Source: Candidatus Bathyarchaeota archaeon (GTDB taxonomy: Archaea; Thermoproteota; Bathyarchaeia; Bathyarchaeales; Bathycorpusculaceae). From it: a stretch of 64,000 bases of DNA. Shown piece by piece: positions 28,358-62,782 of the stretch. The notes under the pieces are model-generated. The model was not told the DNA's origin. It ran no database searches and saw only the letters and a program-made list of their open reading frames with translations. The stretch lies in NCBI GenBank assembly GCA_018396955.1, contig JAGTQI010000001.1:6467-70466 (forward strand), given 5' to 3'. Each line of letters begins with the position of its first letter. The stretch's first letter is position 1. The position numbers and the translations under genes are program-made.

Positions 28358-28597
28358 TTGTTTGAAGAATTTAGTGAACTGCTCAGTGTGGTGAAGGAGA
28401 TGAGTGAATTGGCAAACCTGTTTAGGGATTTGAGAGCCGACATGAAGAAGCTCATCGAAACATTAGCCGCCTTAAACAACCACATGTCAAAGCTTGAAAC
28501 CTTCGCGGAGTCCACCGCCAAACTTACAAGGGAGCTTGAGGAGGCGAACAGGAGCATCAAATCCTTAACTGATATGCTTAGGGAGCTGGGTAAATGA
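28358..28597 (+). CDS. Small coiled-coil protein
   Basis: 79-aa ORF overlapping the protease gene start by 4 nt. Confidence 0.35.
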   Translation: MFEEFSELLSVVKEMSELANLFRDLRADMKKLIETLAALNNHMSKLETFAESTAKLTRELEEANRSIKSLTDMLRELGK

Positions 28598-40995: not shown

Positions 40996-41550
40996 AATTA
41001 ACATATAAGACAAAAAACCACCCTTTAAAAAGAGTATCCATGCAAATAAACATTCATTAAACTTTCGGCTAATCATGTTATTTCTGTGCATTTCTCTAAA
41101 GATGTTAGGCAAAAGAAATATTGCATCTGTTCCGTTTGTGTTGCTGGCTGGAAATTTTCAATAACATTAAAGCTAATGGGCTTTCTTAGCGCGATTAATT
41201 AATCGTCTGTCTTCAACGTTTTCGGCAGACAGTTCATAAAAGCTAATTTTTCTTATACATAATACAACTAAAACAAAGTCGAAACCAAAAGGAACAAGAT
41301 GTTCCTTTAAACGTTACTAATAGAATAAACATTGAAACGTCCTTAAACATCTTAAAATTAAGCCAAAACCTTTGGAAATAGGATATAAAGTATGCGCCCT
41401 AAAATGCTCTAGTTTTCAAAATGTTGGAAGGTAAATGTTGCAGTGTAAGAAATTGGCTATTGTTGTAGGGAGCAATGCAAAAGTTTGAGTGAATAAAATA
41501 AAAAAAACATTTAAACAATATGATTAGCATCTAAATTTGAGTTGGTGCCT

Positions 41551-42405: not shown

Positions 42406-42416
42406 GCGAAAAGTTC

Positions 42417-43565
42417 ATGGAAATTAAAGAGATCAGAGTCTTCAAAATGAACCTCGCATTGAACGAGTCCTTCTCGATATCTTTTAAAACCTATACTCAG
42501 GCGCAAAACGTGCTTGTGATTATAGAGACAGATGAAGGAATAGAAGGTTATGGAGAGGGATCTCCTGATAAATCAATAACTGGCGATTCTCAAGAGGAGG
42601 CGTTATCATTTCTTAGAGTTGTTGCAAAGCGACTTGTAGGTAAACCTGTTGATATAGATTTGATCCATGAAAATTTGAAAACTATTGAGAGTAATCTAGG
42701 TTTTAAAAGTCAAACAGGGAAAGCAGCGATCGACATGGCTTGTTACGACATAATTGGTAAAAAATTGGAAAAACCTGTTTATAGGATTCTCGGTTTGGCA
42801 AAACCAAACCTTGTACCGACAAGCTTGACTATTGGCATTAAGACGCTTGAAGAAACTGTCAGGTCTGCTAGAAAATATATGGAAGCGTTTGAAAAAAACG
42901 GCCTCAAACGTATAAAACTTAAATTATCTGGGAATCCCGAAGAAGACATACGTAGGGTTATGAAATTATCAGAGGTATTTCCCGGAGAAATTACCTTAGA
43001 TGCAAACCAGGGGTATAAAAATCCAGAGGTAGCCGTTAAAGTTTTTAATAAACTTTATAAGTCAATAGGCTCTCGCATTCTTTTTGTAGAAGAACCGTGT
43101 CCAAAAGGAGATTTAGCAATGATGAAATACGTTAATGATAATTCCCCTATTCCTGTAATTGCTGATGAAAGCGTCACATCTATTGAAGATGCTGAGAAGG
43201 TAATTCGGCAGAAAAGCGCTTCAGGAATAAATATTAAACTTCAAAAGTCTGGAGGAATTTATTACGCTTCAATAATTGCTAAGTTAGCTGGTGAGAAAGG
43301 ATTTAAATTAATGGTGGGATGCAATGAGGAAACCCACCTCGCGATTTCTGCTTCTGTAAATTTTGTGGCAGGCACTCCATATATTTCGAGCGCAGACTTA
43401 GACAGTGATATTTTATTAAATCTTAACATAACAAACGAAAATCCCGTAGACTCATTTAAAGAAGGATGTAGGGTACCGGCTGAAAAACCAGGACTTGGGG
43501 TAAGAATTGCTGATTGGCTAAAGGCAATAATAAATGGGCAAATATTTTTGGCTCCGATGGCTTAA
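42417..43565 (+). CDS. Enolase-superfamily enzyme (dipeptide epimerase / muconate-cycloisomerase-like)
   Basis: N-terminal capping domain ..GYGEGSP.., KLKLSG, TLDANQGY, FVEEP, ADES metal-ligand pattern. Confidence 0.7.
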   Translation: MEIKEIRVFKMNLALNESFSISFKTYTQAQNVLVIIETDEGIEGYGEGSPDKSITGDSQEEALSFLRVVAKRLVGKPVDIDLIHENLKTIESNLGFKSQTGKAAIDMACYDIIGKKLEKPVYRILGLAKPNLVPTSLTIGIKTLEETVRSARKYMEAFEKNGLKRIKLKLSGNPEEDIRRVMKLSEVFPGEITLDANQGYKNPEVAVKVFNKLYKSIGSRILFVEEPCPKGDLAMMKYVNDNSPIPVIADESVTSIEDAEKVIRQKSASGINIKLQKSGGIYYASIIAKLAGEKGFKLMVGCNEETHLAISASVNFVAGTPYISSADLDSDILLNLNITNENPVDSFKEGCRVPAEKPGLGVRIADWLKAIINGQIFLAPMA

Positions 43566-43671
43566 TAGACGTGATGTCTATTTACCGCGTTCCTTTAGGC
43601 GTTATCACCATTAAACTTATTAGTATCTTAATCTCAAAAATTGAATTTAAATTTAATTAGAAGGGGAAAAT

Positions 43672-45255
43672 ATGACTGAAAAAGTTTACGCCAGAAAAAC
43701 GTCAGGCTTAGTAAGGGAAATATCTCTTGCTGACGCGCTAATGTACAACATTGCTTGCATGGGAATTCTCTTCGTCCTTGTATATACTACGTGGGGGTTA
43801 GCTCTTTACCCAGGAGCGCACCTGCCTACAACCGCATTGTTGGCTATACCCCTTGGCTTGCCATTAGCCTTTTGTTATGCTTTTCTATCTGCTTCGATGC
43901 CAAGATCTGGTGGAGACTATATTTGGGTTAGCAGAATACTGCACCCGGCGGTAGGATTCATGATAAGCTTTTCCTTAGTGTTTATGTTGCTTGTAGCGAT
44001 AGGCGTAGAACCACATTGGTGCATTCAATACGGAATATATCCAATGTTGCAAGGTTTAGGAATAGCAATGAATAACTCTGGTCTAATCAGCTTAGCCGAA
44101 GCGATATCTTCTCCTGTTGTAATACAAATTTTGGGCCTCGCATACTTCATTTTGATAGGTCTAGTAATTGCTAGAGGTGTTAGAACCGCGATGAGAATAC
44201 AATGGATACTTTTCGCGATAAGCGCCATAGGTGCTTTCACATACATTATTACACTTTTGGCGGTAGGACCAACAAACTTTAAGCTCAACTTCAATACGCT
44301 TTCTGGAATGAACTATGATGCTGTTATAGAAGCAGCACGGCAAGCAGGGTATTCAACAACGTTTACTCTTTCAGCTACATTAATTGGAGTAGTCTACACA
44401 TTCCTTAACCTCATAGGATACGTCTTTTCTTCTTATGTTGCGGGCGAAATAAAAGAAGTTAGCAAGACGCAACTAATTGCAACAACATGCTCACTTATTA
44501 TGCTTGCTCTATTAATGTTCGGAGTCTATCAGGTTACCTTTTACACGATGGGGGCAGAATTCACCGCGGCAATATCATATCTAGGTGTAAGTGGCGATCC
44601 AGCATATCGTTTGCCTTTCCCAGAACCATTTCCACATGCGATGATGCCATATATCACAAGTAATCCGATCCCCATAATACTTGTAAACTTAGGTTTCGCC
44701 GTCACTCCATTATTAGCAGGCTTGGCCTACATTTTCCTTATAGTAAGAAATATCTTTGCGTGGTCCTTTGACAGAGTTGTGCCAACAGCGCTATCAAAAG
44801 TTGATGACCGTTTCCACTCACCATATGTTTCCACAATTGTAGTGATTATTCTTGCAATGATTTTTCAAGCTTTATGGATATACACAACAGTTTTCCAGTT
44901 CGTGCTATATTTAACAACCGTAATCTTTACCATATACATAATCGTTGGCATAGCAGCAATAATATTTCCATACAAGAAAAAAGACATTTTCGAAGCTTCA
45001 CCGTCTTTTGTTAAGGCAAAAATCAGATCAATTCCTGTGATTACAATAATCGGAGCGCTAACAACAATAATTTCAGCCTTCATAGTCTACGCTACATTAG
45101 TACCTACATTTGGAGGGTTCCTAGAACCGTACACTCTTGCTTTGAATTTATTACCATTCCCTACGGCAATTGCGATATACGCTGTAGCATCACTCTATCG
45201 TAAAAAGACAGGCATACCTCTCGAATATGCCTTCAAAGAAATTCCGCCGATGTGA
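43672..45255 (+). CDS. APC-superfamily amino-acid/polyamine permease
   Basis: About 12-14 TM segments; ..MPRSGGDYIWVSR.. is typical of APC transporters. Confidence 0.7.
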   Translation: MTEKVYARKTSGLVREISLADALMYNIACMGILFVLVYTTWGLALYPGAHLPTTALLAIPLGLPLAFCYAFLSASMPRSGGDYIWVSRILHPAVGFMISFSLVFMLLVAIGVEPHWCIQYGIYPMLQGLGIAMNNSGLISLAEAISSPVVIQILGLAYFILIGLVIARGVRTAMRIQWILFAISAIGAFTYIITLLAVGPTNFKLNFNTLSGMNYDAVIEAARQAGYSTTFTLSATLIGVVYTFLNLIGYVFSSYVAGEIKEVSKTQLIATTCSLIMLALLMFGVYQVTFYTMGAEFTAAISYLGVSGDPAYRLPFPEPFPHAMMPYITSNPIPIILVNLGFAVTPLLAGLAYIFLIVRNIFAWSFDRVVPTALSKVDDRFHSPYVSTIVVIILAMIFQALWIYTTVFQFVLYLTTVIFTIYIIVGIAAIIFPYKKKDIFEASPSFVKAKIRSIPVITIIGALTTIISAFIVYATLVPTFGGFLEPYTLALNLLPFPTAIAIYAVASLYRKKTGIPLEYAFKEIPPM

Positions 45256-46220
45256 GAAAAATAATGCCCAAAACCCGGATTTTTTTCACTACAGATATTC
45301 ACGGCTCAGAGCAATGTTTCATCAAATTTCTGAACGCGGCAAAATTTTATAAAGCTGATATTTTAATCCTCGGAGGAGATATAACTGGAAAGGCCATAGT
45401 ACCGATAATACAGCAAGGTTCAGATCTTTTTTCTGCATACTTTCTAGGTCAAAAACATGTTTTAAAGGGCTTTAAAAAACTCGATGAACTCGAGGAAAAA
45501 ATAAAAGTGGTAGGATTCTATCCCTATCGTACAAATGCTAAAGAATGGGATGATATAACTGCTAATTCTCAGAAATTCAATGAATTATTTATAAGGCTAC
45601 AAATTGAAACTTTAAAAAAATGGATCAAGTTAGCAGAGGAACGATTAAAGCAACAAAAGATAAAAGTTTTTATCTGCCCTGGTAATGACGATACATTTGA
45701 AATCGACGACATTTTAAATGAATCCGACTATGTAGTGAACCCTGACGGACGAATAGTTGAAATTGATGATTATCATACTATGATTGCCATAGGTAACTCT
45801 AACATAACGCCTTGGAATTGCCCAAGAGATATTCCAGAAGATAGGCTTTATGAGAAGCTGGAATCACTTGCATCTAAAATTGGAAAACTTGACCACACAA
45901 TCTTTTGCGTTCACGTCCCACCCTACGGCTCAGGATTAGATGTAGCACCGCAACTTAACAATAAGTTAAAACCCGTCCTAGGACCTGGAGGTGCTCCTGT
46001 AATGATTCCAGTAGGATCTACAGCAGTTAAACAAGCCATCGAGAAGTATCAACCATTCCTAAGCCTTCACGGTCACATACACGAATCTAGAGGAGTTACT
46101 AAAATAGGTCGAACTTTATGTCTAAATCCTGGAAGCGAATATGCAGAAGGCATTTTAAGAGGTGCGTTAATAGACATTGAGAAAGGCAAAGTTAAAGATT
46201 ATCTATTAACTGCCGGCTAG
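45252..46220 (+). CDS. Calcineurin-like metallophosphoesterase
   Basis: TTDIHGS, LGGDITGK, PGNDD, VHVPPYG, HGHIHES motifs. Confidence 0.7.
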   Translation: MRKIMPKTRIFFTTDIHGSEQCFIKFLNAAKFYKADILILGGDITGKAIVPIIQQGSDLFSAYFLGQKHVLKGFKKLDELEEKIKVVGFYPYRTNAKEWDDITANSQKFNELFIRLQIETLKKWIKLAEERLKQQKIKVFICPGNDDTFEIDDILNESDYVVNPDGRIVEIDDYHTMIAIGNSNITPWNCPRDIPEDRLYEKLESLASKIGKLDHTIFCVHVPPYGSGLDVAPQLNNKLKPVLGPGGAPVMIPVGSTAVKQAIEKYQPFLSLHGHIHESRGVTKIGRTLCLNPGSEYAEGILRGALIDIEKGKVKDYLLTAG

Positions 46221-46297
46221 TTGCTTTATCCTTAGATATAATTTTATATATTTAAAAATCGTTTTGAGTAAAGAACTTTAATTAGCGAGGCAATGCT

Positions 46298-47119
46298 ATG
46301 CCAAGCTATGGAGAGCAATTATCAGATAGTTTTTTCATAGAAGAAGCTACGAAGATCTTAAATGAAGCAAGAAAACGCAATATTGTCCTTAGAGTTATAG
46401 GCGCATTAGCTGTAAAATTGCATAGCCCAGGATATGAAGATTTATATGCAAAATTGAAAAGGCTTGGAGAAAATAATCCGACATTTACCGATATAGATTT
46501 TGTTGCTTACGGTAAACAACGCAAGGAACTAGTTAAACTCTTTAACGAAATGAGATACATCCCCGATATGTACATAATGGCTTTTTTCGGCTCCAAAAGA
46601 CTCCTATATTACCATCCGCAAAGATTATACCATGTAGATATTTTTCTAGATAAACTGGAGTTTAGTCACGAGATATTCTTTGGCAACGAGCCTGGGAAGG
46701 GGAGACTCGAAATAGAAGAATTCACAATATCTCTTGCGGATTTAGTACTTGAGAAAGTGCAAATTCACGAAATCAACGAGAAAGACATAAAAGATCTTAT
46801 TATTTTATTCAGTGCTCACAATTTAGCAGAAACAGATAAACCTGAAGCTATCAACATTAAATACGTAGCCAAAGTATTAGCTGGCGATTGGGGATTCTGG
46901 TTTGATGCAAAAGAAAACTTGAAAAAAGTTCTCGTTTTTGCTAAAAAATACCATGAAGAGGGATTAATAACCGCAACAATTTTTGAGGATGTTAACCGCA
47001 AAATAGGTCAGCTTTTAACAGCTATTGATCAAGAGCCTAAAACAAAGGCTTGGGAAAAAAGGGCAAAAATTGGTACAAACAAGAAATGGTATAGAGATGT
47101 TGAAGAATTAGTCCGATAA
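46298..47119 (+). CDS. Hypothetical protein, possibly nucleotidyltransferase-fold
   Basis: LRVIGALAVKLH....FTDIDFVAY weakly resembles NTase (AbiEii-like) motifs. Confidence 0.25.
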   Translation: MPSYGEQLSDSFFIEEATKILNEARKRNIVLRVIGALAVKLHSPGYEDLYAKLKRLGENNPTFTDIDFVAYGKQRKELVKLFNEMRYIPDMYIMAFFGSKRLLYYHPQRLYHVDIFLDKLEFSHEIFFGNEPGKGRLEIEEFTISLADLVLEKVQIHEINEKDIKDLIILFSAHNLAETDKPEAINIKYVAKVLAGDWGFWFDAKENLKKVLVFAKKYHEEGLITATIFEDVNRKIGQLLTAIDQEPKTKAWEKRAKIGTNKKWYRDVEELVR

Positions 47120-50048: not shown

Positions 50049-51725
50049 CTATGTAAGTAGCTCGTCTAATGATAGTCCCTTTGGTAGAACAGCTACTCCT
50101 TGTGGTGTTTTTCCCGTGTCAAACAAGGTTTTCCAGTAATCGTAACTTTGTTTGCCTCCGAAAATTGCTGAGGATAATCCTGTATCCCTGTTGATCCACA
50201 AGGGCATATTTGCAATATTTTGGATGACCTTGCGAATGTGACCCCAAAGTTGCTCGGGGAATTTGTATTGGAATAGCTCCTTATCCTCGACGGATTTCCC
50301 CATGGCTAATAGGAAATATCTCTTTATGCAATCCCTAACATAACGGAGGATATTGTATAACACTTCTTCTCTTGTCAATCTAATTGCTCTGAGATGATTG
50401 TCTGGAATATTTTCGCCTTTTCTTAGTTTTTCTTCTATTTTAGCGCTTCCGATATCAACGTCGTATTTTCCAATGAGGATTTCTTCAGCAAACATATTCA
50501 TAAGTTTTATAAGTTGTTCTTTTTCTAACTGGCGGGGGTTTTCCCCCACTTCAAGTTTATATGATAATGGGGTTTCTAAAGGTTCCTTGTTTATGAAGAA
50601 AGTGAAGAAAGTTTTCTCGATTGTGCTATAAGATAATGGCTTTTCAGCTGCCCGTCCACCAAATTCAATGTAATCTTTCAACTTATTTTCTGGAGAGTGT
50701 ATGACGTAGGTTCTGACATCATCAATAATGTATTTCTTCAGTTCCCTATGCTCTCCTTTAAAAAACGTAATTAAATCTTTCTCTGAGAAACTCAAGTCGT
50801 TTTCTTCGAGACCTTTGAGTTGTCGATATTGATCAATTTTCTCCCAATAAATTTGGCTCCCGAGAAAGCGCTGGACGGACATGTCAAATGCGACTTGGCG
50901 CAGAACCGTACCAGCTCGAGTGTTTGTCACGAGTAAGAGATCAAGATCTTTCTCATTATTTACCAAGAAAACGCGTAAAGGGAACTCTCTAACACCCAAG
51001 AGTAACTGTGCGGCAATTTTGTGTTGTCCGTCGAAAACCTTTACCTCCGCTTTACCATGCTCTATTTTAGTCCACGCCAAACTTACATGAAGCTGAGGTC
51101 TCCCATGCAAGAACTCTTCAATTAAACCTTTGACCCTAGAGCCGATGGCCCTCGGATTTATCCTGTCATCATGGTAAATATATTCAATCGGCAAGCTAAT
51201 AAAGGAGTAATTTAATCCAGACAAGGCATCTTTATACAAGTTACTTTTGTCGCTTTTAATTGTAGAAATGTGCCAAAATTCATATTCAATTTCATCGTTA
51301 ATTTTGCTAATCTTTAAAGGATATTTTGCACCACCGAATTCCTCAAGAAAATCCCCAAGGTTAGGATGGTTAAACCCTCTCTTTCCATATTTTTCTTTCA
51401 TCTCTTCATACTTGAACATACATCTGGCAACGCGAAGGTCTGAGTCCAGTTTCTTTTTATTGCATATTTCATGTGTAAGAGCAAAATTTTGTGGCTCGTC
51501 TTTTCCTCCAGCTGCTCTTGGGACAATATGATCTATCTGCCAATCCCCTGAGTTCAAGTCTATTGGCCTACCGCATATAAAGCATTTTTTGCCTTGGATT
51601 TCGTGTAGCCTCTCAGCTATTTCCGTTCGCGACACATTTTGTTCCTCACAGTGGCAAGTGACCATTTCCTTCTTTACAGTAAAATGCTTTTTAAATTTTC
51701 GAAAGTGCTTTGGGCATATTAGCAC
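50049..51725 (-). CDS. HNH nuclease fused to a DGQHR/DndB-like (ParB-fold) domain
   Basis: N-terminus: CFICGRPIDLNSGDWQIDHIVPRAAGGKDEPQNFALTHEICNKKK (HNH). Middle: VKVFDGQHKIAAQLLLG (DGQHR-type motif). Confidence 0.6.
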   Translation of the reverse strand: MLICPKHFRKFKKHFTVKKEMVTCHCEEQNVSRTEIAERLHEIQGKKCFICGRPIDLNSGDWQIDHIVPRAAGGKDEPQNFALTHEICNKKKLDSDLRVARCMFKYEEMKEKYGKRGFNHPNLGDFLEEFGGAKYPLKISKINDEIEYEFWHISTIKSDKSNLYKDALSGLNYSFISLPIEYIYHDDRINPRAIGSRVKGLIEEFLHGRPQLHVSLAWTKIEHGKAEVKVFDGQHKIAAQLLLGVREFPLRVFLVNNEKDLDLLLVTNTRAGTVLRQVAFDMSVQRFLGSQIYWEKIDQYRQLKGLEENDLSFSEKDLITFFKGEHRELKKYIIDDVRTYVIHSPENKLKDYIEFGGRAAEKPLSYSTIEKTFFTFFINKEPLETPLSYKLEVGENPRQLEKEQLIKLMNMFAEEILIGKYDVDIGSAKIEEKLRKGENIPDNHLRAIRLTREEVLYNILRYVRDCIKRYFLLAMGKSVEDKELFQYKFPEQLWGHIRKVIQNIANMPLWINRDTGLSSAIFGGKQSYDYWKTLFDTGKTPQGVAVLPKGLSLDELLT

Positions 51726-51960: not shown

Positions 51961-52170
51961 ATGTCAAAAAATCGTAATGAGCTGATTATTAAACTGATAG
52001 AACTTTTAGAGAAAGATCCGGGACAGACTGTAAAACAGTTAGCTAAGCAGTTAAATGTTAATAGAACTTTCTTATCAGGTTATCTCGAAGCATTAGAATT
52101 TGAGGGTTATGTAAGATCAAAGAAAATTGGACCAGCTAAGGTGTATTTTAAAGAAAACTTGAGGAGGTAA
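51961..52170 (+). CDS. Winged-helix DNA-binding protein, first gene of the RM-like operon
   Basis: TVKQLAKQLNVNRTFLSGYLEALEFEGYVRSKKIGPAKVY. Confidence 0.55.
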   Translation: MSKNRNELIIKLIELLEKDPGQTVKQLAKQLNVNRTFLSGYLEALEFEGYVRSKKIGPAKVYFKENLRR

Positions 52171-52172
52171 GT

Positions 52173-54086
52173 ATGGGAAAACAAGTTACTTTAAATGGTA
52201 AAGTTGCTGAAGAAACCATCCCACTTGGCAAAATTAAATGTTTTATATCTGGAAAATTGCGTAACGATACTCCTGAAGAACAAGTACGACAGGAAATAGC
52301 AAAAAGCCTGGTTGAAGAGTATGGTTACAAGAAAGAGGACATTGAGCTTGGTTTTCCAATAAGAGCTGGGAGACGTGTGAAATTCGCAGATATCGTAATT
52401 TTTTACGATGACCGGGTACATAAACAGGAGAATATTTACATTATTGCTGAAACAAAATCAGAAAATGTCAAGCCCTCTCACAAGGAAAGCGGGATTGATC
52501 AATTAAAATCATATCTGTCGGTTTGTTTGAACGCCAAGTTTGGTCTATGGGTTGGTAGTGAAAGAATCGCTTTAGAAGTCGTGGAAAAAGAGGGAATAAG
52601 AGAGTTTGTCGATATTCCTGATTTACCGAGGCGAGGTGAAACAACCCCGCCAAAACCCACCAGGGGCTGGTTGGTTCCTGCAATTAACTTAAAATCTGTG
52701 TTCAAAAGAATTCATAATTACATTTATGCAAACCAAGGCTTACAGAAGGACAAGGCATTCGAAGAGTTGTTAAAACTGATTTTCATAAAAGTTTACGATG
52801 AGAGATTTAATCCGTCCATCAGGTTTTATATAATGCCGAAGGAAAGCATCCACGATGTTAGAAATCGCTTATTAGAGGTTTTTCAAAAGGTAAAAGATAG
52901 ATGGAAATACATTTTCAAGCCTGAAGAAACAATTGAACTGAATGATCAAGTTTTGAAATATGCGGTTTCGGAACTTCAGAGATTTACTCTTGGGGAAACA
53001 GACGTAGACATTAAAGGTGAAGCATATGAAGAAATAGTTGGGCCAAATCTAAGAGGAGACAGAGGAGAGTTCTTTACACCAAGAAACCTCTGCAGAATGA
53101 CAATAGATATGCTGTTTTCACTTGTTCCCGAGGACAAATTGCTGACTCCTGGAGGGTTCAGAATTCTGGATCCAGCTGTTGGAACAGGGGGCTTTCTCAT
53201 TGTTGGTATACAGAGGATAAGGCAAATGCTTTCCCAGAAAGGATATAATTATGACAGGTTGAGAGATGCTGTTAAGGAAATCGCTGAAACAAACTTTTTT
53301 GGAATAGACTTTAATCCGTTTCTTGTTAAAGTTGCCCAAATGAATATGGTCGTACATGGAGATGGTTCTATAAACATGGTTCACGCTAATTCCCTGGCTC
53401 ATCCTTCCACGTGGTCTGACGAAGTACTTGAAAGACTCTTTCCTGACGATGTAAGGAGAAATGAAGGCGTCGTGAATCTCAGAAATAATCTTAAAACACT
53501 AGAAAGGCCCTCAGAGGTAGAACATTTTCTCTCAAAATTCGATGTTGTAGTTACTAATCCGCCTTTCGGTACAAAAGCCCTTATTGACGATCCTGCAATA
53601 CTTTCCCAATTTGAAATTTGGACTTTTGAATCTGCGTCGAGAAGAAAGTCGCTACCCCCTGAACAGCTTTTCATTGAAAGGTGCCTACAGTTCCTGAAGC
53701 CTGGCGGTGTGCTTGGAATAGTATTGCCAGATAGCATTTTAAGCAATCCTGGGCTATTGTGGATAAGAAAATGGATACTGTTTAAGGCTTATGTTTTGGC
53801 AAGTGTGGACATGCCAACAGAAACGTTTGAACCGCATACTGGGACTCAAACAAGCATATTGATTCTAAGGAAGAAACACGTTGAGGAACAAAAACTGAAA
53901 AAGAATTATGAAATTTTTATGGCTATTCCTGAAAAAGTTGGACATGATAGACGGGGAAATCCTGTATACAAACTCACGTCTGAGGGGAAAATAGCCTTAG
54001 ATGAAAAGGGGCAACCAATTATAGAAGACCATCTTCCACTGGTGTCTAAACTTTTTAGAGAATGGGTAGGTCAAAAATTTGGTTAG
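52173..54086 (+). CDS. N6-adenine DNA methyltransferase (type I HsdM-like, gamma class) with N-terminal HsdR_N-type PD-(D/E)XK domain
   Basis: N-terminus: FADIVIF...IYIIAETKS (D..ExK). Motif I ILDPAVGTGGFLI, motif IV VVTNPPFG. Confidence 0.8.
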   Translation: MGKQVTLNGKVAEETIPLGKIKCFISGKLRNDTPEEQVRQEIAKSLVEEYGYKKEDIELGFPIRAGRRVKFADIVIFYDDRVHKQENIYIIAETKSENVKPSHKESGIDQLKSYLSVCLNAKFGLWVGSERIALEVVEKEGIREFVDIPDLPRRGETTPPKPTRGWLVPAINLKSVFKRIHNYIYANQGLQKDKAFEELLKLIFIKVYDERFNPSIRFYIMPKESIHDVRNRLLEVFQKVKDRWKYIFKPEETIELNDQVLKYAVSELQRFTLGETDVDIKGEAYEEIVGPNLRGDRGEFFTPRNLCRMTIDMLFSLVPEDKLLTPGGFRILDPAVGTGGFLIVGIQRIRQMLSQKGYNYDRLRDAVKEIAETNFFGIDFNPFLVKVAQMNMVVHGDGSINMVHANSLAHPSTWSDEVLERLFPDDVRRNEGVVNLRNNLKTLERPSEVEHFLSKFDVVVTNPPFGTKALIDDPAILSQFEIWTFESASRRKSLPPEQLFIERCLQFLKPGGVLGIVLPDSILSNPGLLWIRKWILFKAYVLASVDMPTETFEPHTGTQTSILILRKKHVEEQKLKKNYEIFMAIPEKVGHDRRGNPVYKLTSEGKIALDEKGQPIIEDHLPLVSKLFREWVGQKFG

Positions 54087-55530
54087 TGATTCGATAACCC
54101 CCTTCCATTGGAATGTTATAAAAAGCGAATGGATTTGTTCCGAGCCATCTCAAAGATTAGATGCGAATTTCTATGCTAAAGACATTGTAGAAGCCAGAAT
54201 TCTACTTAACAGGATGAAAGAAAAAGGCGTAAAATTAAAAACTTTAAATGATCCTTCTTTTGTTAGCCAGATCTTTTGGCCTGCACGATTTAAAAGAAAG
54301 TATGCTGCGGATGAAAATGGAAGGCCGTTCTTAACACCAAAAGAGATTTTCCAATTTCTAATCAAACCAAGCAAGTTTATAGTAGATCCCCCTGAAAATT
54401 TACTAATAAAAGAGAAGTGGATCTTAGTAACAAGATCAGGTAGCATAGGAAGGTGCCTAATCGCAAACACAATTTTATCAAACTATGTGGTTTCTGATGA
54501 TTTGATAAGAATAATTTTGAATGATGAAAAATATTTGGGGTATATCTATGCTTTTTTAAATACATGGATAGGCCAGGCGTTTCTAACAAAAACACCTTAT
54601 GGAGAAACCGTTAAACACATAGAGCCTGAGCACATAGCGAACATTCCATTACCATTACTCTCCGAATCTGACTTGAAAGAGATTAATGAAAAAATATTGG
54701 AAGCCTACAAGCTTAGAGAAGAAGCCCAAAAATTACTACTTGAGGCTGAAAAAATATTCCGTAAAGAATTAGAGCTACCTCTATTACATGATAATTCCAT
54801 TGACTATTTTGGCGGGGAAAATGGCAAGCTAATCAAGGCGTTTACTCTGAATTCAGATGAATTCTTCACATCCCAAATTAGGCTCAATGCCTATTCTTAT
54901 ATGCCAATTTCTAGGTACACGAGAAAAACTCTTAATGAAAGAAAAGGGAAGTACAATTTGAAAAAATTGGGGGATCCTGAAGTCTCGCGGAAAGTTTTCA
55001 CGCCTCCAAGATTTAAAAGAATTTACGTGAAGAATGAAAAAGAGGGGATTCCCTTACTGCAAGGCTCGCACATTCCTATGCTGAAATATTTTGACATCAA
55101 GTTGATTTGGAATAAAATGGAAAATCTAAACGAGTACATCATTAAAAGGAATTGGATATTGGTAACGTGTTCAGGGACTATTGGAAGGGTTTTTCTTGTA
55201 AGTAAGCTTTGTGAAGGATGGGCCGCGACTAATCACATGACAAGAATTATACCTTCCGAAAAAATAAATGCAGGGTATCTCACAATATTCTTACAATCTC
55301 CCTATGGCTTATCACAACTTCAAACATTAATTTATGGCGGGGTTGTAGAGGAATTGGGTGAAGCAGGCGAATTACTTAGTGAAATATTAGTTCCTATACC
55401 CTCCGATACAGCACAAGAGAAAATTGGAAATTTGGTTATTGAAGCATATGAGAAGAAAGATCAAGCGAATATGCTTGAAAACAAGGCTGTTAAAGCCTTG
55501 GAAGAAAAGTTGGTTGAGGCTGCGAAATGA
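54079..55530 (+). CDS. Type I restriction-modification specificity subunit (HsdS-like, two TRDs)
   Basis: Internal duplication (WILVTRSGSIGRCLIAN / WILVTCSGTIGRVFLVS) separated and followed by conserved helical spacers. 8-nt overlap with the MTase gene. Confidence 0.65.
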   Translation: MVSDSITPFHWNVIKSEWICSEPSQRLDANFYAKDIVEARILLNRMKEKGVKLKTLNDPSFVSQIFWPARFKRKYAADENGRPFLTPKEIFQFLIKPSKFIVDPPENLLIKEKWILVTRSGSIGRCLIANTILSNYVVSDDLIRIILNDEKYLGYIYAFLNTWIGQAFLTKTPYGETVKHIEPEHIANIPLPLLSESDLKEINEKILEAYKLREEAQKLLLEAEKIFRKELELPLLHDNSIDYFGGENGKLIKAFTLNSDEFFTSQIRLNAYSYMPISRYTRKTLNERKGKYNLKKLGDPEVSRKVFTPPRFKRIYVKNEKEGIPLLQGSHIPMLKYFDIKLIWNKMENLNEYIIKRNWILVTCSGTIGRVFLVSKLCEGWAATNHMTRIIPSEKINAGYLTIFLQSPYGLSQLQTLIYGGVVEELGEAGELLSEILVPIPSDTAQEKIGNLVIEAYEKKDQANMLENKAVKALEEKLVEAAK

Positions 55531-56687
55531 AAGAAAATGCAAGTTTGGGCGCGGTTGACGTAAAAGAAATTAAAAATCAATTTAAAGCTATCGTCGAATG
55601 CGTTAAAAAACATGGAAAGCTCATAAAGAATCCTCTTCTAGAGCCAGCAGAAGAAGAATTGCCAATAGATCTAGAGAAAAGAGAAGATGATGAAAAATTT
55701 AGGAAAAGAGAATGTTTTAACATTGAAGTTCCAGAGAATTATGAAAGGCCATATGTACCGCTTGGTGAACCTCTTCATCGCGAAAAGAAGCATCTTTTCA
55801 GATTTTTCTTGGATGGCAGCCTAAAAACTTATTACTTAGGCGAATACATAATTCCAGCCCTTTCTTTTCCATTCATGGCTGGAGAAATCGCGGCTGCATG
55901 CCTATTTAGAAATAACAACGGGACTCTTTCTGTTCCTCTAAATGGCTTTAAAAGGAGAATTTGCTTGCTTTTTCCAAATAAATCTCTTCTTCCGGACAGC
56001 TTACAAATAGAACTTGAGGAAACAACCAAAAAACTTGAGAGTTATAGTGGTTTAAAGGTCGAACCTCAATATACAGAGGAAACGGAATCAAAAGATTGGA
56101 GATCCTCTTTAAGAGCTAAAGGAATTTCGGAAATGCACGAAACCGAGGTTCAATTGGCCAAATCTGTAAGAGAAAATTCAGCTACAGGATGGCTAGTTAT
56201 TGATGGTGCTATAAGAAAAAAAATGTTTTTAGACTTGGAAAATGTAATCGGTCTGGCAAAATCTTTCAGCAGACTACCAATTTTTGAGATAGAAAATCGA
56301 ACAACGTTGGACATAGTAAAGCTTCTAGCAAGATTAGGAGAAGGGGAAAGAACAATCATTTTCAAGCAAGGGATCGCAGAAGGAGACGCTGAGAGCAGCG
56401 TTAAAAAAGTTCTGGGTTTTTGGTACCTTAGATTAAGAACAGGTGAATGGTTAGAAAATCCTCTACAAGGTGTTGTAAAAGTGGAGATGAAAATTGAAAA
56501 AGATGTTGTGGACTCTAAAACAATAGATGTTGTTAACGAGGTTTCAAAAGCTTTGCTAGCGGAAAGAACTGTATCGCCTTATCCAACTCCCAGATGGCAC
56601 GCCCATATCTACCCTATTTACGTGGCTGAAAACTATATTAAAAGTAATTTTCTATCACAATATTATTTTAGAGGGTTATTGGCATGA
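55527..56687 (+). CDS. NurA-like nuclease
   Basis: RFFLDGSLKTYY and GWLVIDGAI resemble NurA Asp motifs. 4-nt overlaps with the hsdS-like and herA-like genes. Confidence 0.5.
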   Translation: MKENASLGAVDVKEIKNQFKAIVECVKKHGKLIKNPLLEPAEEELPIDLEKREDDEKFRKRECFNIEVPENYERPYVPLGEPLHREKKHLFRFFLDGSLKTYYLGEYIIPALSFPFMAGEIAAACLFRNNNGTLSVPLNGFKRRICLLFPNKSLLPDSLQIELEETTKKLESYSGLKVEPQYTEETESKDWRSSLRAKGISEMHETEVQLAKSVRENSATGWLVIDGAIRKKMFLDLENVIGLAKSFSRLPIFEIENRTTLDIVKLLARLGEGERTIIFKQGIAEGDAESSVKKVLGFWYLRLRTGEWLENPLQGVVKVEMKIEKDVVDSKTIDVVNEVSKALLAERTVSPYPTPRWHAHIYPIYVAENYIKSNFLSQYYFRGLLA

Positions 56688-58384
56688 GCAACAAAAAAGA
56701 AGAAAAAGGGGAAATCATCGGGAAAACAACAGCCACAGAGAGATTCCCAAACACAGTGGAGGAATTCTATTTCTGGGTTGAACCAGGGAAAATTATAAAT
56801 CCTTTCGATTTTGTGTCCGTTGAACATGTTAAAGATACTACTACAATTGGTTTAGTTTCCTCAATGAAGTTAATAACCGACGCTAAATCACAATTAGCTG
56901 ATTATGTAAGCAGCGAATTCGGCAAAGTAGAATCGGTGCCTCAAACTCCTAGAATAGAGACAACAGTCGCAAAGGCAAAGGTTATGTCTAATATTTCTGC
57001 CGAGCTTCCAATCGAAGTGCTGATGCCGGTTAGCGCAAATAAAATTGTAAGGTTCGCTGTAGAAGACGAGGTTCGAGCCGGATTAGGTCTTCTATTAGTT
57101 CCAGAAGAAAAAAGAATTCCAATAGGAGTTATAGAAATGAGTAACGGCACTCAAGTGCTTGTTTTTGTTGACTCTGAATATTTACTAGGCCCTCAAGGTG
57201 CCCATTTGAATATTTCAGGCATAACGGGTTTGGCAACGAAAACCTCGTATTTAATGTTCTTGATTCAAACAATTTACCAGAAGATGAAAGATAGTGTTGC
57301 GATCATTATTTTTAATGTAAAACAAGATGATCTATTACACTTAAATGAAGAACCAACTGATATCACTAAGGATGACGAAGAAATGTATGAAATCGTTAGG
57401 ATTGACAAGCACACATTCCCCATTAACGATCCTCAAAAAGAGGTGAGAGGAATAAAATACTTCTTACCTCGCGGTTTTCGGGGACAACCAAACTCAGCTT
57501 ATATCCCGCAAACAGGATACTACATTTACGCTTATGCCCTTTCGGATGTTCATAATAGACTTGATCTGCTTTTCCATGGCGTGCCTGATCCTTACCTAAC
57601 AATGCGCGGTATAATTGATTTTATAATGGAAAGATATGGCCAGCTTCGATTTAGAAACAACGTAACAGATCCTATCACTGGACAAATAGTGAGAAGAGCG
57701 GGATCTCCAGTTGTCACATGGGAGGACCTAAAACTTTTCGAAGATTATCCAAGAGAGGTCGTACGGTACGAGCGGACAGCGTGGAGATTTAGAGGGTTAT
57801 TAAGACAATTTACAACCTCGCACCTATTTGTCAATCAACGCTCTCAAACTGAAGTTTATCTAGGCGAGGAAATTAAAAAAGTCAAAGCTGGAGAAATCTA
57901 CGTTATTGATATTGCAAAAATAACTGATGAAAGGGAGCAAGCATTCATAATAGGAGATGTTATGAGATCCCTTGATGAAATGTATGGTGAAAGAGCAAGC
58001 GAAGAAATACCATCAAAAATCATCATTCTAATTGACGAGTTAAACAGATACGCGCCTAAGGCTGGAGGATTTGAAGAAGTATCGCCAGTAACAGAGCAAA
58101 TACGAGAAATAGCAAGAACAGGAAGATCGAGAGGAACTATTCTGTTTACTGCCGAACAGTTCAAAAGCTCCGTTGATAGGCAAATAATAGAAAATTCCGC
58201 CATGCAAGTTGTCGGTAGAACTGGAAGCTCTGAACTGACATCAGATGTTTATAGGTTTCTTGATCCGGATATAAAAGATATAGCTACTCGACTTGAAAAA
58301 GGCGAACTTATAATTTCACATCCAACATTTAGAAAGGCAATAAAAATAAGGTTCCCTAAACCCTACTACAAAAGAATAGGCTGA
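56684..58384 (+). CDS. HerA-like (FtsK-HerA superfamily, DUF87-type) ATPase
   Basis: N-terminal barrel-like segment (GEIIGKTTATE..FYFWV..FDFVSVEH..TIGLVSSM), P-loop region ISGITGLATKTS (deviant), Walker B KIIILIDELNRYAP, RSRGTILFTAEQ. Confidence 0.6.
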   Translation: MSNKKEEKGEIIGKTTATERFPNTVEEFYFWVEPGKIINPFDFVSVEHVKDTTTIGLVSSMKLITDAKSQLADYVSSEFGKVESVPQTPRIETTVAKAKVMSNISAELPIEVLMPVSANKIVRFAVEDEVRAGLGLLLVPEEKRIPIGVIEMSNGTQVLVFVDSEYLLGPQGAHLNISGITGLATKTSYLMFLIQTIYQKMKDSVAIIIFNVKQDDLLHLNEEPTDITKDDEEMYEIVRIDKHTFPINDPQKEVRGIKYFLPRGFRGQPNSAYIPQTGYYIYAYALSDVHNRLDLLFHGVPDPYLTMRGIIDFIMERYGQLRFRNNVTDPITGQIVRRAGSPVVTWEDLKLFEDYPREVVRYERTAWRFRGLLRQFTTSHLFVNQRSQTEVYLGEEIKKVKAGEIYVIDIAKITDEREQAFIIGDVMRSLDEMYGERASEEIPSKIIILIDELNRYAPKAGGFEEVSPVTEQIREIARTGRSRGTILFTAEQFKSSVDRQIIENSAMQVVGRTGSSELTSDVYRFLDPDIKDIATRLEKGELIISHPTFRKAIKIRFPKPYYKRIG

Positions 58385-59687: not shown

Positions 59688-60995
59688 TTAGTATTTTTTG
59701 ATTAGTATTTTTTGTGATGGTAGTATGCTTACAAACTGCCATCCTTCCGCCAAGTATTTCTCAAGCTCCTTCTCGTGGATTATCCTTTGCGGGTTATGTT
59801 TTCCTTCTCTAAGTTTTTTCAGTTCCCTCTCGTAAAGCTCAAGTTCCTCATCCTTGCTAAGCTCCCTTCCAATTTGCCTTTCCTTTGCAACCTTAACGTC
59901 TAGCAAGTCTATTCCTAGGAGGCTTTTAGCCATACTTTTCAAGGCTTCAATTTTGGCTTCCTTGATTATGCTCGACTGCTCTAGGGGCTGGGTTGCCGTG
60001 CTTAGGAAGGGCTCGCATTCGCGGTAGCATTTGCGCATGCCTTCAATCATGTCTGACGGTAATACGCCTTTATTCGTGCTGTATCTTGCTTCTATGTCGC
60101 CCTTATGCCCCATAATAAACTGCAAGTATGGGTGGCTTATCTTGCCCTTAGACTCTGCTATAATCATGTTTGTGTCACAGTAAGCCCGTAGCACATAAGG
60201 CCTCCAATTGAAGCCAGCCCTCAAAATGGCTTCGCGAATATCCCTCGTCACAAGCGTAGTCCTCAAAAACCTGTTCTTTTTAACTCCCCTAGGGTCAAAG
60301 CCCAGCAACGGAGAATCTTTGCTTAACTCTTCACCCTGCTTAACCCTTTCCTCCAAATACTCTTCAATGTAGGTTATTGTCTGTTGCGGCACAAAGGTGA
60401 AGTATTGGTGTCTAGCCTTGCTTAATCCTCTTCTAACCACGAGCATGGTTGGAACTTTGGTGAATGTTATGCCTTCTTCATTCACTTCGGCTTCTACGAA
60501 ATCTCCAAGCCTTATACCATCTGTGCCCGTATAGTTGCCTAGGCTTTGTGGTCTTATGCCGCTGAAGGCCATGAGGGCTATTGAAACCCTTGCTCTCGGA
60601 GTTGCCATTCTTAGGATTCTGTCAAGCTCCTCTTTGCTTGGAACCCTCTCATTGGCTATGGTTGGTGTTTCATGCTCCCCTCTAACATTAACCTTAAGCC
60701 TTACATCCAAGCCGTTGTAGCTGAACCAGGAATGCAAGGTCTTCTTAAACCTGGCAATGTAGGAGCCTGCCTTGCCCTCACGCTCAAGCCTTCGCACAAA
60801 ATCTGTGAAGCCATCCCTGAAAGCCTTGGTCTTGGCAACTTTAAGAATCGCCTTTGGATCAGTCCTGTTAAGCTCGCAATAAAATCCGAGATTTCTAAGG
60901 TAAACAGTTGCCGTCAAATAAGACTTAGCCGCCAGATTATCAAACCAGCGTCGGACATCCTCATCCTCAAGGAGATACGCGTACTTAGCCCTCAA
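59688..60995 (-). CDS. Tyrosine integrase (phage-integrase family) adjacent to tRNA-Ala
   Basis: ALMAFSGIRPQSL (Arg), LRAYCDT, FIMGHKGDIEARY (His..Tyr). Its start faces the 3' end of the tRNA gene. Confidence 0.8.
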   Translation of the reverse strand: MRAKYAYLLEDEDVRRWFDNLAAKSYLTATVYLRNLGFYCELNRTDPKAILKVAKTKAFRDGFTDFVRRLEREGKAGSYIARFKKTLHSWFSYNGLDVRLKVNVRGEHETPTIANERVPSKEELDRILRMATPRARVSIALMAFSGIRPQSLGNYTGTDGIRLGDFVEAEVNEEGITFTKVPTMLVVRRGLSKARHQYFTFVPQQTITYIEEYLEERVKQGEELSKDSPLLGFDPRGVKKNRFLRTTLVTRDIREAILRAGFNWRPYVLRAYCDTNMIIAESKGKISHPYLQFIMGHKGDIEARYSTNKGVLPSDMIEGMRKCYRECEPFLSTATQPLEQSSIIKEAKIEALKSMAKSLLGIDLLDVKVAKERQIGRELSKDEELELYERELKKLREGKHNPQRIIHEKELEKYLAEGWQFVSILPSQKILIKKY

Positions 60996-61053: not shown

Positions 61054-61066
61054 GTGGACCGGGCGG
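61054..61066. repeat. Proximal copy of the 13-nt att-like repeat (3' end of tRNA-Ala)
   Basis: gtggaccgggcgg is identical to 5073-5085. Confidence 0.5.
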
Positions 61067-61129
61067 GATTTGAACCCGCGACCTCAGCGATGCCAACGCT
61101 GCGATCGTTCCAGGCTGATCTACCGGCCC
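61055..61129 (-). tRNA. tRNA-Ala (anticodon GGC)
   Basis: Manual cloverleaf: acceptor GGGCCGG/CCGGTCC with G3:U70 (the Ala identity pair), D-stem GATC/GATC, anticodon stem CAGCG/CGCTG, loop TTGGCAT, T-arm GCGGG-TTCAAAT-CCCGC, discriminator A; CCA not encoded. Confidence 0.85.
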
Positions 61130-61662: not shown

Positions 61663-61708
61663 TTTAGCTTAGTTGGCAGAAGAGGAAAATCTGTTGCAGA
61701 TTCTGGAA

Positions 61709-62782
61709 ATGAACCTTAAAAAGGGCTTTGTAAAAGTTATTCCAGAAACTTATGATGATTTGTGGCATCTCTACAACATTATTTATAAGGGCGACGAGGT
61801 TTACGCCTACACATCACGAGAAATAAAACAGGACGAGAAATACTTCAGAGGGAAGCGGGGCGAAAGAGTTTCAGTGTTCCTAGGTGTTAAAGTGGGAAAA
61901 GTTGCTTGGGACAAGATCCTTGGAAGGCTTAGGGTTCATGGAACAATATGCCACGCACCAGAAATAATTCCGATGGGCGCACATCACACATTAAATATTA
62001 CACTGAATTCGCCGGTAACTGTTGTGAAAGAGAAGTGGGCAAGCCACCAGCTTGAAAGATTGGAAGCTGCTAGAAAAACTTCAAGAAAACCCATAATTAT
62101 ATTGGCGATAGATGATGAGGGCTTTGCAATAGCCACAACAACCCAATACGGTGTTGAAGTAAAAGTAGAGGAGCGGACAAGGCTTCCAGGAAAGCTTGAG
62201 GCTGACAAAAGGAGTGCCGCTATCAAAGAGTTCTTCCAAAACGCATTAAACAATTTGCGCCAAATCTGGAGCGAAGCCCACAACCCAATCGCCATAATCG
62301 GTGTAGGCTTCATAAAAAATGACTTCGCAAATTTTTTGGAGAAAGAAGCCCCGGAAATGGCTAAATCAGTCGCTGACGTTAAAAGCGTAAACAATAGTGG
62401 CGTCGCAGGCATTTATGAGGCTATACGCTCGGGGGTTCTCACAAAAACCGTGAGGCATCTGAGAATCGCTGAGGAAACTGAAGTTGTCGAGGAGATTCTG
62501 AAAAGGCTCGGTAAGGGCGAGCGAACAGTGGTTTATGGCTTGGACGAGGTTCGTAAAGCATCAGAGTATGGAGCTGTTAATGTACTTGTTTTAGCTGACA
62601 CCGTGTTGCGTGGGGCGGAAGATGAGGAACGCTTATCTCTGGAGCGTTTGATGAAAGACGTGGAGCAGAAGGGAGGAAAAATCATGGTTATAAGCACAGA
62701 ACACGAGGCAGGAGTGAAACTTGTCGCTTTGGGCGGTATAGCCGCCCTCTTAAGGTTTGCACCGCCAACGCAGCCGGCTTAA
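61709..62782 (+). CDS. pelA: Pelota (aDom34) mRNA surveillance factor
   Basis: MNLKKGFVKVIPETYDDLWHLYNIIYKGDEVYA is a typical Pelota N-terminus, and the C-terminal domain is eRF1-like. Start chosen at internal ATG of track ORF 61673. Confidence 0.85.
   Translation: MNLKKGFVKVIPETYDDLWHLYNIIYKGDEVYAYTSREIKQDEKYFRGKRGERVSVFLGVKVGKVAWDKILGRLRVHGTICHAPEIIPMGAHHTLNITLNSPVTVVKEKWASHQLERLEAARKTSRKPIIILAIDDEGFAIATTTQYGVEVKVEERTRLPGKLEADKRSAAIKEFFQNALNNLRQIWSEAHNPIAIIGVGFIKNDFANFLEKEAPEMAKSVADVKSVNNSGVAGIYEAIRSGVLTKTVRHLRIAEETEVVEEILKRLGKGERTVVYGLDEVRKASEYGAVNVLVLADTVLRGAEDEERLSLERLMKDVEQKGGKIMVISTEHEAGVKLVALGGIAALLRFAPPTQPA

Follow-up and report, generated by a model that had tools for sequence, protein, structure and literature searches.

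The stretch of DNA analyzed here, referred to below as the window, comprises 64,000 nucleotides (nt) of a Candidatus Bathyarchaeota archaeon contig and contains a putative anti-foreign-DNA system in which a restriction-modification (R-M) module is joined to the nuclease NurA and an ATPase of the HerA type. A first-pass annotation had described five genes on the same strand, encoding a winged helix-turn-helix (wHTH) protein, a methyltransferase (MTase), an HsdS-like specificity subunit (S), NurA and HerA. Open reading frame (ORF) calling and reading of the junctions gave the same coordinates and spacings (Table 1), and all five identities were borne out by Pfam, PDB, AlphaFold2/Foldseek and motif analysis. 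The wHTH and MTase genes are separated by a 2-nt gap, the MTase and S genes overlap by 8 nt, and the S/nurA and nurA/herA junctions are 4-nt ATGA stop/start overlaps. Two features had been overlooked, namely a nuclease domain at the N terminus of the MTase protein and a sixth codirectional gene, which follows herA after 41 nt and encodes a predicted cobalamin-dependent radical S-adenosylmethionine (SAM) enzyme, designated rSAM. The GC content is 0.32–0.39 over the operon genes and over 39.4–59.6 kb and 0.44–0.47 outside, which confirms the AT-rich setting noted earlier. The NurA protein of the window is 100% identical to KEJ37_00470 from a Candidatus Bathyarchaeota metagenome-assembled genome (MAG).

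Table 1. Genes and domains of the six-gene unit and the adjacent reading frame.
Feature	Coordinates	Strand	Basis
wHTH gene, 69 amino acids (aa)	51961..52170	+	Pfam, ORF calling
MTase/R-M gene, 637 aa	52173..54086	+	Pfam, PADLOC, NCBIfam, PDB
Predicted nuclease domain of the MTase protein, aa 34–149, motif D73...E93-x-K95	52272..52619	+	HSDR_N_2 extent
MTase catalytic region, aa 278–576; SAM motif DPAVGTGGF aa 333–341, catalytic NPPF aa 462–465	53004..53900	+	
S-subunit gene, TTG start, 483 aa	54079..55530	+	Pfam, NCBIfam
nurA, 386 aa	55527..56687	+	PDB sequence match, AlphaFold2, Foldseek, PF09376 on homologs
TdtA-type herA, 566 aa	56684..58384	+	PDB match, motifs
Cobalamin radical-SAM gene, 397 aa	58426..59619	+	Pfam, motif, AlphaFold2, Foldseek
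435-aa ORF between the rSAM gene and tRNA-Ala(GGC); GC 0.457, already host-like	59688..60995	-	

The wHTH protein matches Pfam HTH_24 (E-value 2.3e-7) and, weakly, PADLOC mad1 (E-value 0.004); a protein with 87–88% identity is encoded upstream of the MTase in the related loci L007 and L009. It is a probable operon regulator of the MarR/ArsR/HTH_24 type. The MTase protein matches both Pfam N6_Mtase (4.8e-31) and HSDR_N_2 (2.7e-19). Its best PADLOC model is MTase_II (1.8e-114), and the best match among solved structures is RM.BsaXI (3.5e-22), which covers the MTase region alone (aa 177–573). In an alignment of 15 homologs from bacteria and archaea with 64–83% identity, D73, E93 and K95 of the nuclease motif are invariant, as are DPAVGTGGF and NPPF. 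Judging from these motifs, the protein combines a PD-(D/E)xK nuclease with a gamma-class N6-adenine MTase, and the modification (M) and S subunits together look like a bifunctional enzyme of the BcgI/BsaXI type. The S protein contains two Pfam Methylase_S stretches and an internal duplication; the PADLOC models Specificity_II and mad5 score about equally on it. NCBIfam assigns 498 bits to the MTase with MADS2 (equivalog cut-off 720) and 360 bits to S with MADS5 (equivalog cut-off 400), so that M and S appear to belong to the MAD2/MAD5 family at scores below the equivalog cut-offs.

It had been suggested that NurA and HerA occupy the place of a missing restriction subunit. The lack of a superfamily 2 (SF2) HsdR can be affirmed, both among the window ORFs scanned with Pfam and beside the M+S pair in the four other contexts sampled (L095–L098). 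However, the MTase carries its own HSDR_N_2 domain with an invariant catalytic triad, and NurA-HerA would therefore be added to restriction rather than replacing it; M+S also occurs alone. The M+S family is very large, with 62–72% identity across domains; the pair is accompanied by a DUF87 fragment in L095 and has no companions in L096 and L097. In L098 (9815–14181), S overlaps by 4 nt the gene of a 509-aa protein with an RNase HII domain, which is followed by the gene of a 399-aa unannotated protein, and this region adjoins Tn7-like TniQ/TniB genes. The presence of another RNase H-fold protein in the position of NurA suggests that the place after S is a slot for effectors in general.

The NurA protein has no Pfam match of its own and no PADLOC or NCBIfam match even at E-values up to 10, and the PDB sequence search gave a weak match with 7f6d_H, the NurA chain of the Deinococcus radiodurans complex (0.022). 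PF09376 is, in turn, precomputed on several of its homologs. The AlphaFold2 model has a predicted local distance difference test (pLDDT) score of 86.3 and a predicted template modeling score of 0.86. A Foldseek search with this model found D. radiodurans NurA (7f6d_G, 3.4e-10) and TM1739 (1zup_A, 9.8e-10), both with a probability of 1.0, while the next E-values exceeded 0.02. In the alignment of 39 sequences, D96, E207 and D226 do not vary and H360 reaches at least 90% conservation; by comparison with published NurA structures, these four would be the catalytic metal-binding residues. Protein 4 is thus predicted to be a NurA-family nuclease of the RNase H fold. It is paired with a HerA-type ATPase in essentially all surveyed loci and shows 34% identity to the NurA of the Thermus scotoductus tdtA-like cluster. 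The N-terminal region (aa 1–90, 55527–55800) contains an acidic segment, PAEEELPxDxExxEDD, which is common to the family and in which D48, D54 and E67 are invariant. Such a segment is not known from the classical descriptions of NurA, and it may serve in regulation or in the docking of HerA. The family is of modest size, with 967 representative clusters at E-values up to 1e-3 among 1.84 billion, and no relatives of NurA were found in the viral contig collection.

The HerA protein matches D. radiodurans HerA in the PDB (7f6d_B, 3.6e-32, 114 bits). Its Walker A (SGITGLATKTS, K186), Walker B (IILIDE), arginine finger (GRSRG) and glutamine sensor (AEQF) motifs are conserved throughout the family; the HAS-barrel match is weak (21.2 bits, cut-off 25.2). 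Far closer than D. radiodurans HerA is the T. scotoductus TdtA-like protein, which is 42% identical over the full length (E-value 6e-152). Among defense models, PADLOC mad8 matches the C-terminal ATPase part (6.9e-9, aa 289–556), matches with the PADLOC HerA models are weak (2e-5), and in the PDB the closest defense HerA is 8xau (0.005). A tblastn search of plasmids with HerA revealed only matches of about 25% identity. By its sequence, protein 5 would be a TdtA-type hexameric translocase of the HerA/FtsK superfamily. The profile searches, which had been named as a check, and the structure comparisons indicated that the region 55527–58384 encodes a genuine NurA and a genuine HerA.

The sixth gene product matches the Pfam B12-binding domain (35.3 bits, cut-off 32.1) and contains the CxxxCxxC motif CIRKCPFC (aa 144–151), in which C144, C148 and C151 are invariant in 31 sequences. 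No PDB sequence match was found, NCBIfam matches are weak, and PADLOC gave no match even at E-values up to 10. The top Foldseek match of the AlphaFold2 model (pLDDT 92) is TokK (3e-8, probability 1.0), and the alignment spans both domains. The protein is probably a class-B cobalamin radical-SAM methylase-like enzyme, and its gene would extend the unit to six. A homolog accompanies NurA-HerA in 25 of the surveyed loci, L001, L003, L013 and L017 among them; all the related archaeal contexts examined contain one, as do several bacterial contexts, and the enzyme appears to be the ancestral partner of the NurA-HerA lineage to which the window belongs.

Several other contexts of this enzyme can be noted. 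In L003 (8591–9760), a homolog with 34% identity to that of the window is encoded directly upstream of a canonical nurA-herA-mre11-rad50 operon, so the link is not limited to mobile copies of NurA-HerA. Homologs in L099, L100 and L101 are 58–61% identical to the window enzyme. In L100 (1337–8173) and L101 (4589–8167) they are preceded by genes for a MORC-like HATPase_c_3 protein and for an unannotated protein of about 280–330 aa; a 950-aa N6-MTase is present in L100 and absent in L101, and an integrase gene lies near both segments. The homolog of L099 (7001–8344) is located among Dnd-associated, SMC-like and DEAD-helicase genes. The MORC-like HATPase of L100 and L101 has no convincing match in PADLOC v2, the rSAM protein has none of any kind there, and the set of MORC-like HATPase and rSAM may be an undescribed conflict module.

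A survey of gene neighborhoods had been proposed with the first-pass annotation. The exact order wHTH, MTase, S, nurA, herA, rSAM recurs in L007, L008, L009 and L015 and is partly kept in L011 and L012, which come from different metagenomes and MAGs and share 79–94% identity in NurA. It is confined to this narrow archaeal clade, and its two parts also occur separately. In every relative with both genes the 4-nt ATGA overlap between S and nurA is kept. Among the six-gene relatives, the S subunit is 45–81% identical, and the neighboring genes are about 81–93% identical. The S subunit is mosaic by target recognition domain (TRD): in L007 and L008, identity is 80–97% in TRD2 and only 10–57% in TRD1, against about 90% in the neighboring genes, which points to an actively diversifying specificity. 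In the neighbor-joining tree of HerA, the clade of the window lies inside an rSAM-linked archaeal lineage, and M+S is a late addition. The order rSAM, nurA, herA occurs in L017 and L021. In L013, a DndB-like gene comes after the order nurA, herA, rSAM, and the opposite strand carries an Mrr-like gene. The same three genes lie beside a transposase in L001, and this Thermoplasmatota copy is 70–73% identical to that of the window, which argues for lateral transfer. The six-gene unit thus appears to be built from two cassettes that also occur apart.

A scan of the genome collection with the NurA alignment revealed 80 loci, mostly bacterial. Their ORFs were called crudely and clustered, and the clusters were annotated using Pfam, PADLOC and NCBIfam; the counts below refer to those 47 non-redundant loci that have 4 kb or more on each side. 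The loci were chosen by two peptide patterns and the best tblastn score, a biased selection, so these counts are not population frequencies: an R-M enzyme (Type IIG or equivalent) is encoded on the same strand within four genes in 34 of the 47 loci, a second methylase in 21, an rSAM enzyme in 11, at least one SAM-dependent enzyme in 43, and mre11/rad50 in one. The commonest order is a protein of about 1090 aa, NurA, HerA and a protein of about 410 aa. The first of these matches the PADLOC Type IIG REase-MTase model over its full length (1227 bits), and the final one belongs to the Type II N4/N6 methyltransferases. Such tdtA-type operons were found across many bacterial phyla, and integrases and transposases recur near them. 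According to the HerA tree, the R-M linkage of the window and that of the bacterial relatives have independent origins.

Some bacterial loci contain ATPase genes inserted between the R-M gene and nurA. In L048 (8058–10022), L055, L076, L091, L029 (6959–9204), L032, L082 and L094, the insertion encodes either an AriA/HEC-01A/Mad3-like protein (AAA_21/AAA_15), often followed by an ORF of about 200 aa, or three proteins, one of them a BrxD/NACHT-like ATPase. Other variants add a MORC-like HATPase and an rSAM gene. The inserted ATPases suggest subtypes of the bacterial system.

The first-pass annotation knew of no characterized system with this gene order; two clear relatives were found in the literature. 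The first is the tdtA operon carried by the ICETh1 element of Thermus thermophilus HB27, in which the genes of the Type IIG enzyme Tth111II (TthHB27I), a NurA-like protein, TdtA and an N4/N6 methylase are co-transcribed (PMC5365140). ICETh1 is a 14.8-kb low-GC element located in a tRNA gene, and its authors call the T. scotoductus DSM 8553 cluster, which is L057 of our survey, homologous (PMC5365140). DNA donation in the transjugation "DNA secretion system" depends on each of the genes for Tth111II, NurA and TdtA (PMC5365140, PMC7767461). Like ICETh1, the window has a predicted bifunctional R-M enzyme directly upstream of NurA and a HerA ATPase of the same family, a SAM-dependent enzyme in the last position, tight codirectional packing and a lower-GC segment adjoining a tRNA gene. 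Unlike the single-chain Type IIG enzyme of ICETh1 (TspDTI/Tth111II type), the R-M enzyme of the window consists of two proteins, a MAD2/MAD5-type M with its predicted nuclease and an S. The window operon is led by a wHTH gene and ends in a B12 radical-SAM gene, whereas that of ICETh1 ends in an N4/N6 methylase gene; the host is an archaeon, and the R-M linkage arose independently.

An integrative element of the ICETh1 type would be expected to show an integrase, a tRNA attachment site and direct repeats. In the window, tRNA-Ala(GGC) (61054–61129, minus strand) adjoins the low-GC block, and the only signal in favor of the earlier description of an integrase-bounded island is the 435-aa ORF next to it, which is weakly similar to one tyrosine integrase (E-value 0.02). 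This ORF is kept at 92% in L007 and L009. As a possible integrase it found neither Pfam nor PDB support. No direct repeats of the attachment (att) type were found around tRNA-Ala in 36–64 kb, where the sole notable repeat is the internal duplication within S, and the description as integrase-bounded was not confirmed.

The similarity to ICETh1 suggests an alternative explanation, according to which the locus is an archaeal DNA-donation module: R-M breaks in chromosomal or newly invaded host DNA would serve as origins from which HerA with NurA exports DNA, promoting horizontal transfer or DNA capture for the carrier element. We consider this unlikely. The parallel architecture, the full-length HerA similarity to the T. 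scotoductus protein, the requirement for all three Thermus genes, the low-GC block beside a tRNA and the recurrent integrases and transposases near bacterial loci fit it well. On the other hand, no conjugation, pilus or competence genes were seen among the scanned ORFs of the island, and the independent origin of the R-M linkage means that the function is not simply transferable from Thermus. Transjugation requires a naturally competent recipient, and to our knowledge competence is not known for Bathyarchaeia; nor do we know of transjugation reported from many of the phyla with a tdtA-type operon. Moreover, the shuffling of the TRDs of S and the embedded defense-type ATPases fit an arms race better.

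The second relative is the methylation-associated defense system (MADS) of Pseudomonas aeruginosa, whose genes mad1–8 encode an HTH protein, an MTase, an AbiEii/OLD-like protein, a DUF4276 protein, S, a kinase, a DptG-like protein and a HerA-like ATPase (bioRxiv 10.1101/2023.03.30.534895). The HTH lead gene, the combination of HSDR_N-type and N6-MTase domains, the MAD5-family S and a HerA-like ATPase on the effector side are found in both, and discrimination between self and non-self by methylation is a probable further likeness. However, the window operon lacks Mad3 (AAA_21/OLD-like), Mad4 (DUF4276), the Mad6 kinase and Mad7, the DptG-like triple-wHTH protein, and it has a true NurA and a TdtA-type HerA instead. 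Mad6–8 are mandatory in the MacSyFinder model of its authors (bioRxiv 10.1101/2023.03.30.534895). The products of genes 1, 4 and 5 gave no NCBIfam MADS match at E-values up to 0.1. Protein 4 was considered as a Mad7 and rejected, because DptG/DndG is a triple-wHTH protein and not NurA. The window operon is therefore not a member of MADS; what the two have in common is a methylation module of the MAD2/MAD5 type with a HerA-class motor behind it. In viral contigs, two distant relatives of the MTase were found (L104 and L105), with no S or MADS genes downstream.

Other known systems are similar in part. In Type IIB enzymes (BcgI, BsaXI), an N-terminal PD-(D/E)xK domain and a gamma-class N6-MTase likewise form one chain with a separate two-TRD S, as is predicted for the window; unlike the window, the classical Type IIB enzymes have no NurA-HerA linkage. 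Type I systems also contain M and S, and differ from the window in having the SF2 HsdR that was not found among its scanned ORFs. In SIR2-HerA, DUF4297-HerA and the "HerA/FtsK capture" system DndFGH (PMC10853773), a HerA/FtsK ATPase is coupled to a nuclease or another effector, as in the window; here, however, HerA belongs to another clade, the effector is NurA, and discrimination would be provided by the attached R-M enzyme. In the literature that could be searched, neither an R-M/NurA/HerA operon from an archaeon, nor a MAD2/MAD5-type M+S joined to NurA-HerA, nor an rSAM partner of NurA-HerA was found described. The bacterial Type IIG/NurA/TdtA operon and MADS are both published.

The canonical nurA-herA-mre11-rad50 operon encodes the same pair of proteins; there, too, nurA and herA overlap and the active sites are intact. 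Among bacterial relatives, the HerA-NurA of D. radiodurans have been investigated for their part in repair. Canonical operons were found in L003 and in L102/L103, a 3-Mb Bathyarchaeia contig, with NurA 44–48% and HerA about 50% identical to the proteins of the window. The window pair could accordingly be a housekeeping machine for the resection of double-strand-break ends, with an R-M system beside it by chance. This would agree with the membership of canonical operons (44–50% identity) in the same family and with the RadA paralogs elsewhere in the window, and it is nevertheless very improbable. As the first-pass annotation implied, the pair is away from mre11/rad50, which are neither adjacent nor found anywhere in the window. 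The pair is joined to R-M and rSAM genes, lies in a low-GC block and moves laterally between phyla, as the Thermoplasmatota copy beside a transposase implies; the neighbors are R-M, DndB-like, Mrr and MORC-like genes; and Bathyarchaeia carry the canonical operon as a distinct one. Given the operon of L102/L103 and the window without mre11/rad50, the idea that this is the housekeeping copy of the host was rejected.

We propose instead, with a probability of about one half, that the six genes constitute a horizontally acquired anti-foreign-DNA system, in which methylation-discriminating restriction is followed by processive degradation by NurA-HerA. The core of the earlier suggestion, that NurA-HerA act in a methylation-discriminating manner, is retained, and its premise of an absent nuclease is dropped. 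The gene identities, intact motifs, packing, recurrence and the independent bacterial linkage of R-M with NurA-HerA are established, and the following steps would build on them. The wHTH protein would regulate the operon. The first cassette (wHTH, R-M protein and S) would provide a type I/IIB-like enzyme, whose M.S complex, guided by the two TRDs of S, would N6-methylate adenines at a bipartite site on the host DNA, while the PD-(D/E)xK domain on M would nick or cut unmethylated sites of incoming DNA. The second cassette would consist of NurA, the TdtA-type HerA and the B12 radical-SAM enzyme. The HerA hexamer, a translocase on double-stranded DNA, would load on the resulting ends, perhaps through contact with M.S, and feed DNA into the NurA dimer; processive degradation would then turn a repairable break into irreversible destruction. 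In Escherichia coli, RecBCD performs such degradation after restriction. The type I HsdR would in effect be divided: M would carry its nuclease domain, and HerA together with the NurA exonuclease would stand in for its SF2 motor. The rSAM enzyme would be an accessory factor, possibly installing a second, cobalamin-dependent methylation. All products might conceivably act as one complex.

This proposal of a defense system draws on several lines of evidence. The genes are packed with ATGA overlaps in a recurrent order, and the motifs of the MTase, the nuclease domain, NurA, HerA and rSAM are conserved. The S subunit is mosaic by TRD. An R-M linkage arose independently in bacteria, where 34 of the 47 loci contain an R-M enzyme and 43 a SAM-dependent enzyme, and defense-type ATPases (AriA/HEC-01A/Mad3-like and BrxD-like) are inserted in the bacterial operons. 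The characterized members of the MAD2/MAD5 family act in anti-phage defense with a HerA-like ATPase, sister loci contain DndB-like and Mrr genes, Bathyarchaeia keep a separate canonical nurA-herA-mre11-rad50 operon, and the low-GC block adjoins a tRNA gene. Finally, HerA-NurA of Thermococcus kodakarensis digests both strands, and an antiviral role has been proposed for it (PMC12977600, 2026).

Other observations weigh against the proposal. The only experimental phenotype of an operon with R-M, NurA and HerA, that of ICETh1, is DNA donation and not defense (PMC5365140), and PADLOC contains no model for NurA or the rSAM enzyme. The six-gene order is limited to a clade of at least 79% NurA identity, and its recurrence may partly reflect shared ancestry. 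The M.S enzyme, with its own predicted nuclease, may not need NurA-HerA, and M+S is a self-standing pair in L096 and L097. The closest outgroups, L013 (75% NurA identity) and L001 (70%), have no M+S. In L010 (1–270), the last ~20 codons of S (MLFSKNEAIKTLEEELAEAAK) precede an intact nurA-herA and M is gone, which shows a secondary loss of M+S and makes this locus a decayed version of the system. The remnant is preceded by AT-rich sequence with an inverted repeat (gggttctctccc...gggagagaacccc), and downstream of the pair small ORFs and a possibly transposase-like ORF take the place of the rSAM gene.

In another explanation, two independent systems merely stand side by side: a self-sufficient type IIB-like HTH-M-S module would have been inserted upstream of a mobile NurA-HerA-rSAM cassette with a trigger and function of its own, and their co-transcription would be incidental. 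Defense genes are known to cluster without functional coupling. The separate occurrence of both parts (M+S alone or with unrelated downstream genes; NurA-HerA-rSAM without M+S in L001 and L013, and rSAM-NurA-HerA in L017 and L021), the late addition of M+S in the HerA tree and the retention of nurA-herA in L010 after the loss of M+S are all consistent with mere adjacency. We nevertheless give it a low probability. The ATGA overlap of S and nurA is present in every relative with both genes, a different type of R-M enzyme has become linked to the same NurA-HerA family independently, and most bacterial loci embed NurA-HerA between a Type IIG enzyme and a companion methylase. The overlap of S with an RNase HII-like gene in L098 hints at a general effector slot. 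The four Thermus genes are co-transcribed, and those for the R-M enzyme, NurA and the ATPase have a common phenotype (PMC5365140).

The surroundings of the operon can be described briefly. Divergently upstream of the operon (50049–51725, minus strand) lies a gene whose 558-aa product has an HNH nuclease domain at its N terminus, which PADLOC finds PtuB/Cas9-HNH-like; no homolog of it was found upstream of the related operon in L007. The AT-rich block also contains genes for a CN-hydrolase, an enolase-superfamily enzyme, an amino-acid permease and a metallophosphoesterase (40183–47119), and is not purely a defense island. A second ParB-like gene (38442–39272) is located at its edge. Elsewhere in the window, two close RadA/Rad51 paralogs are followed by a ParB-HTH protein (7086–8150, 9803–10843 and 10929–11909), an 870-aa subtilase (Peptidase_S8, 28594–31206) is split by an intein with a LAGLIDADG homing-endonuclease domain, and two eRF1-family proteins are encoded (2683–3957 and 61673–62782), the second of which has no eRF1_2 domain match. 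A scan of 51.5–60 kb for sigma-70 promoters and intrinsic terminators gave counts no higher than in shuffled sequence; the tool does not include archaeal promoters, and this result was not used.

A broader generalization can be outlined, which we regard as doubtful. NurA-HerA coupled to R-M may form a widespread, unnamed class of anti-invader systems in both domains, in which a Type IIG enzyme or a MAD2/MAD5-type M+S would mark self and open foreign DNA, and NurA-HerA would destroy it. The Thermus tdtA operon would then be a member of this class, transjugation would be a by-product of DNA fragmentation, and the rSAM partner, which also accompanies MORC-like ATPases, would install or sense a new nucleic-acid modification.

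Whether HerA-NurA serve in end resection or in the destruction of foreign DNA is debated, and the T. kodakarensis study favors the latter (PMC12977600). The results presented here indicate that a single NurA-HerA family includes both copies linked to mre11/rad50 and copies that have been joined to R-M at least twice independently, in archaea and in many bacterial phyla, and the six-gene cassette makes this question testable. The uncharacterized cobalamin radical-SAM enzyme is brought to attention because it is a conserved companion of modules for DNA processing and of MORC-like modules. The idea behind MADS, a MAD2/MAD5 module with a HerA-type motor, is extended to a minimal archaeal form, and the locus prompts a re-examination of the Thermus "DNA secretion" operon as a possible defense system.

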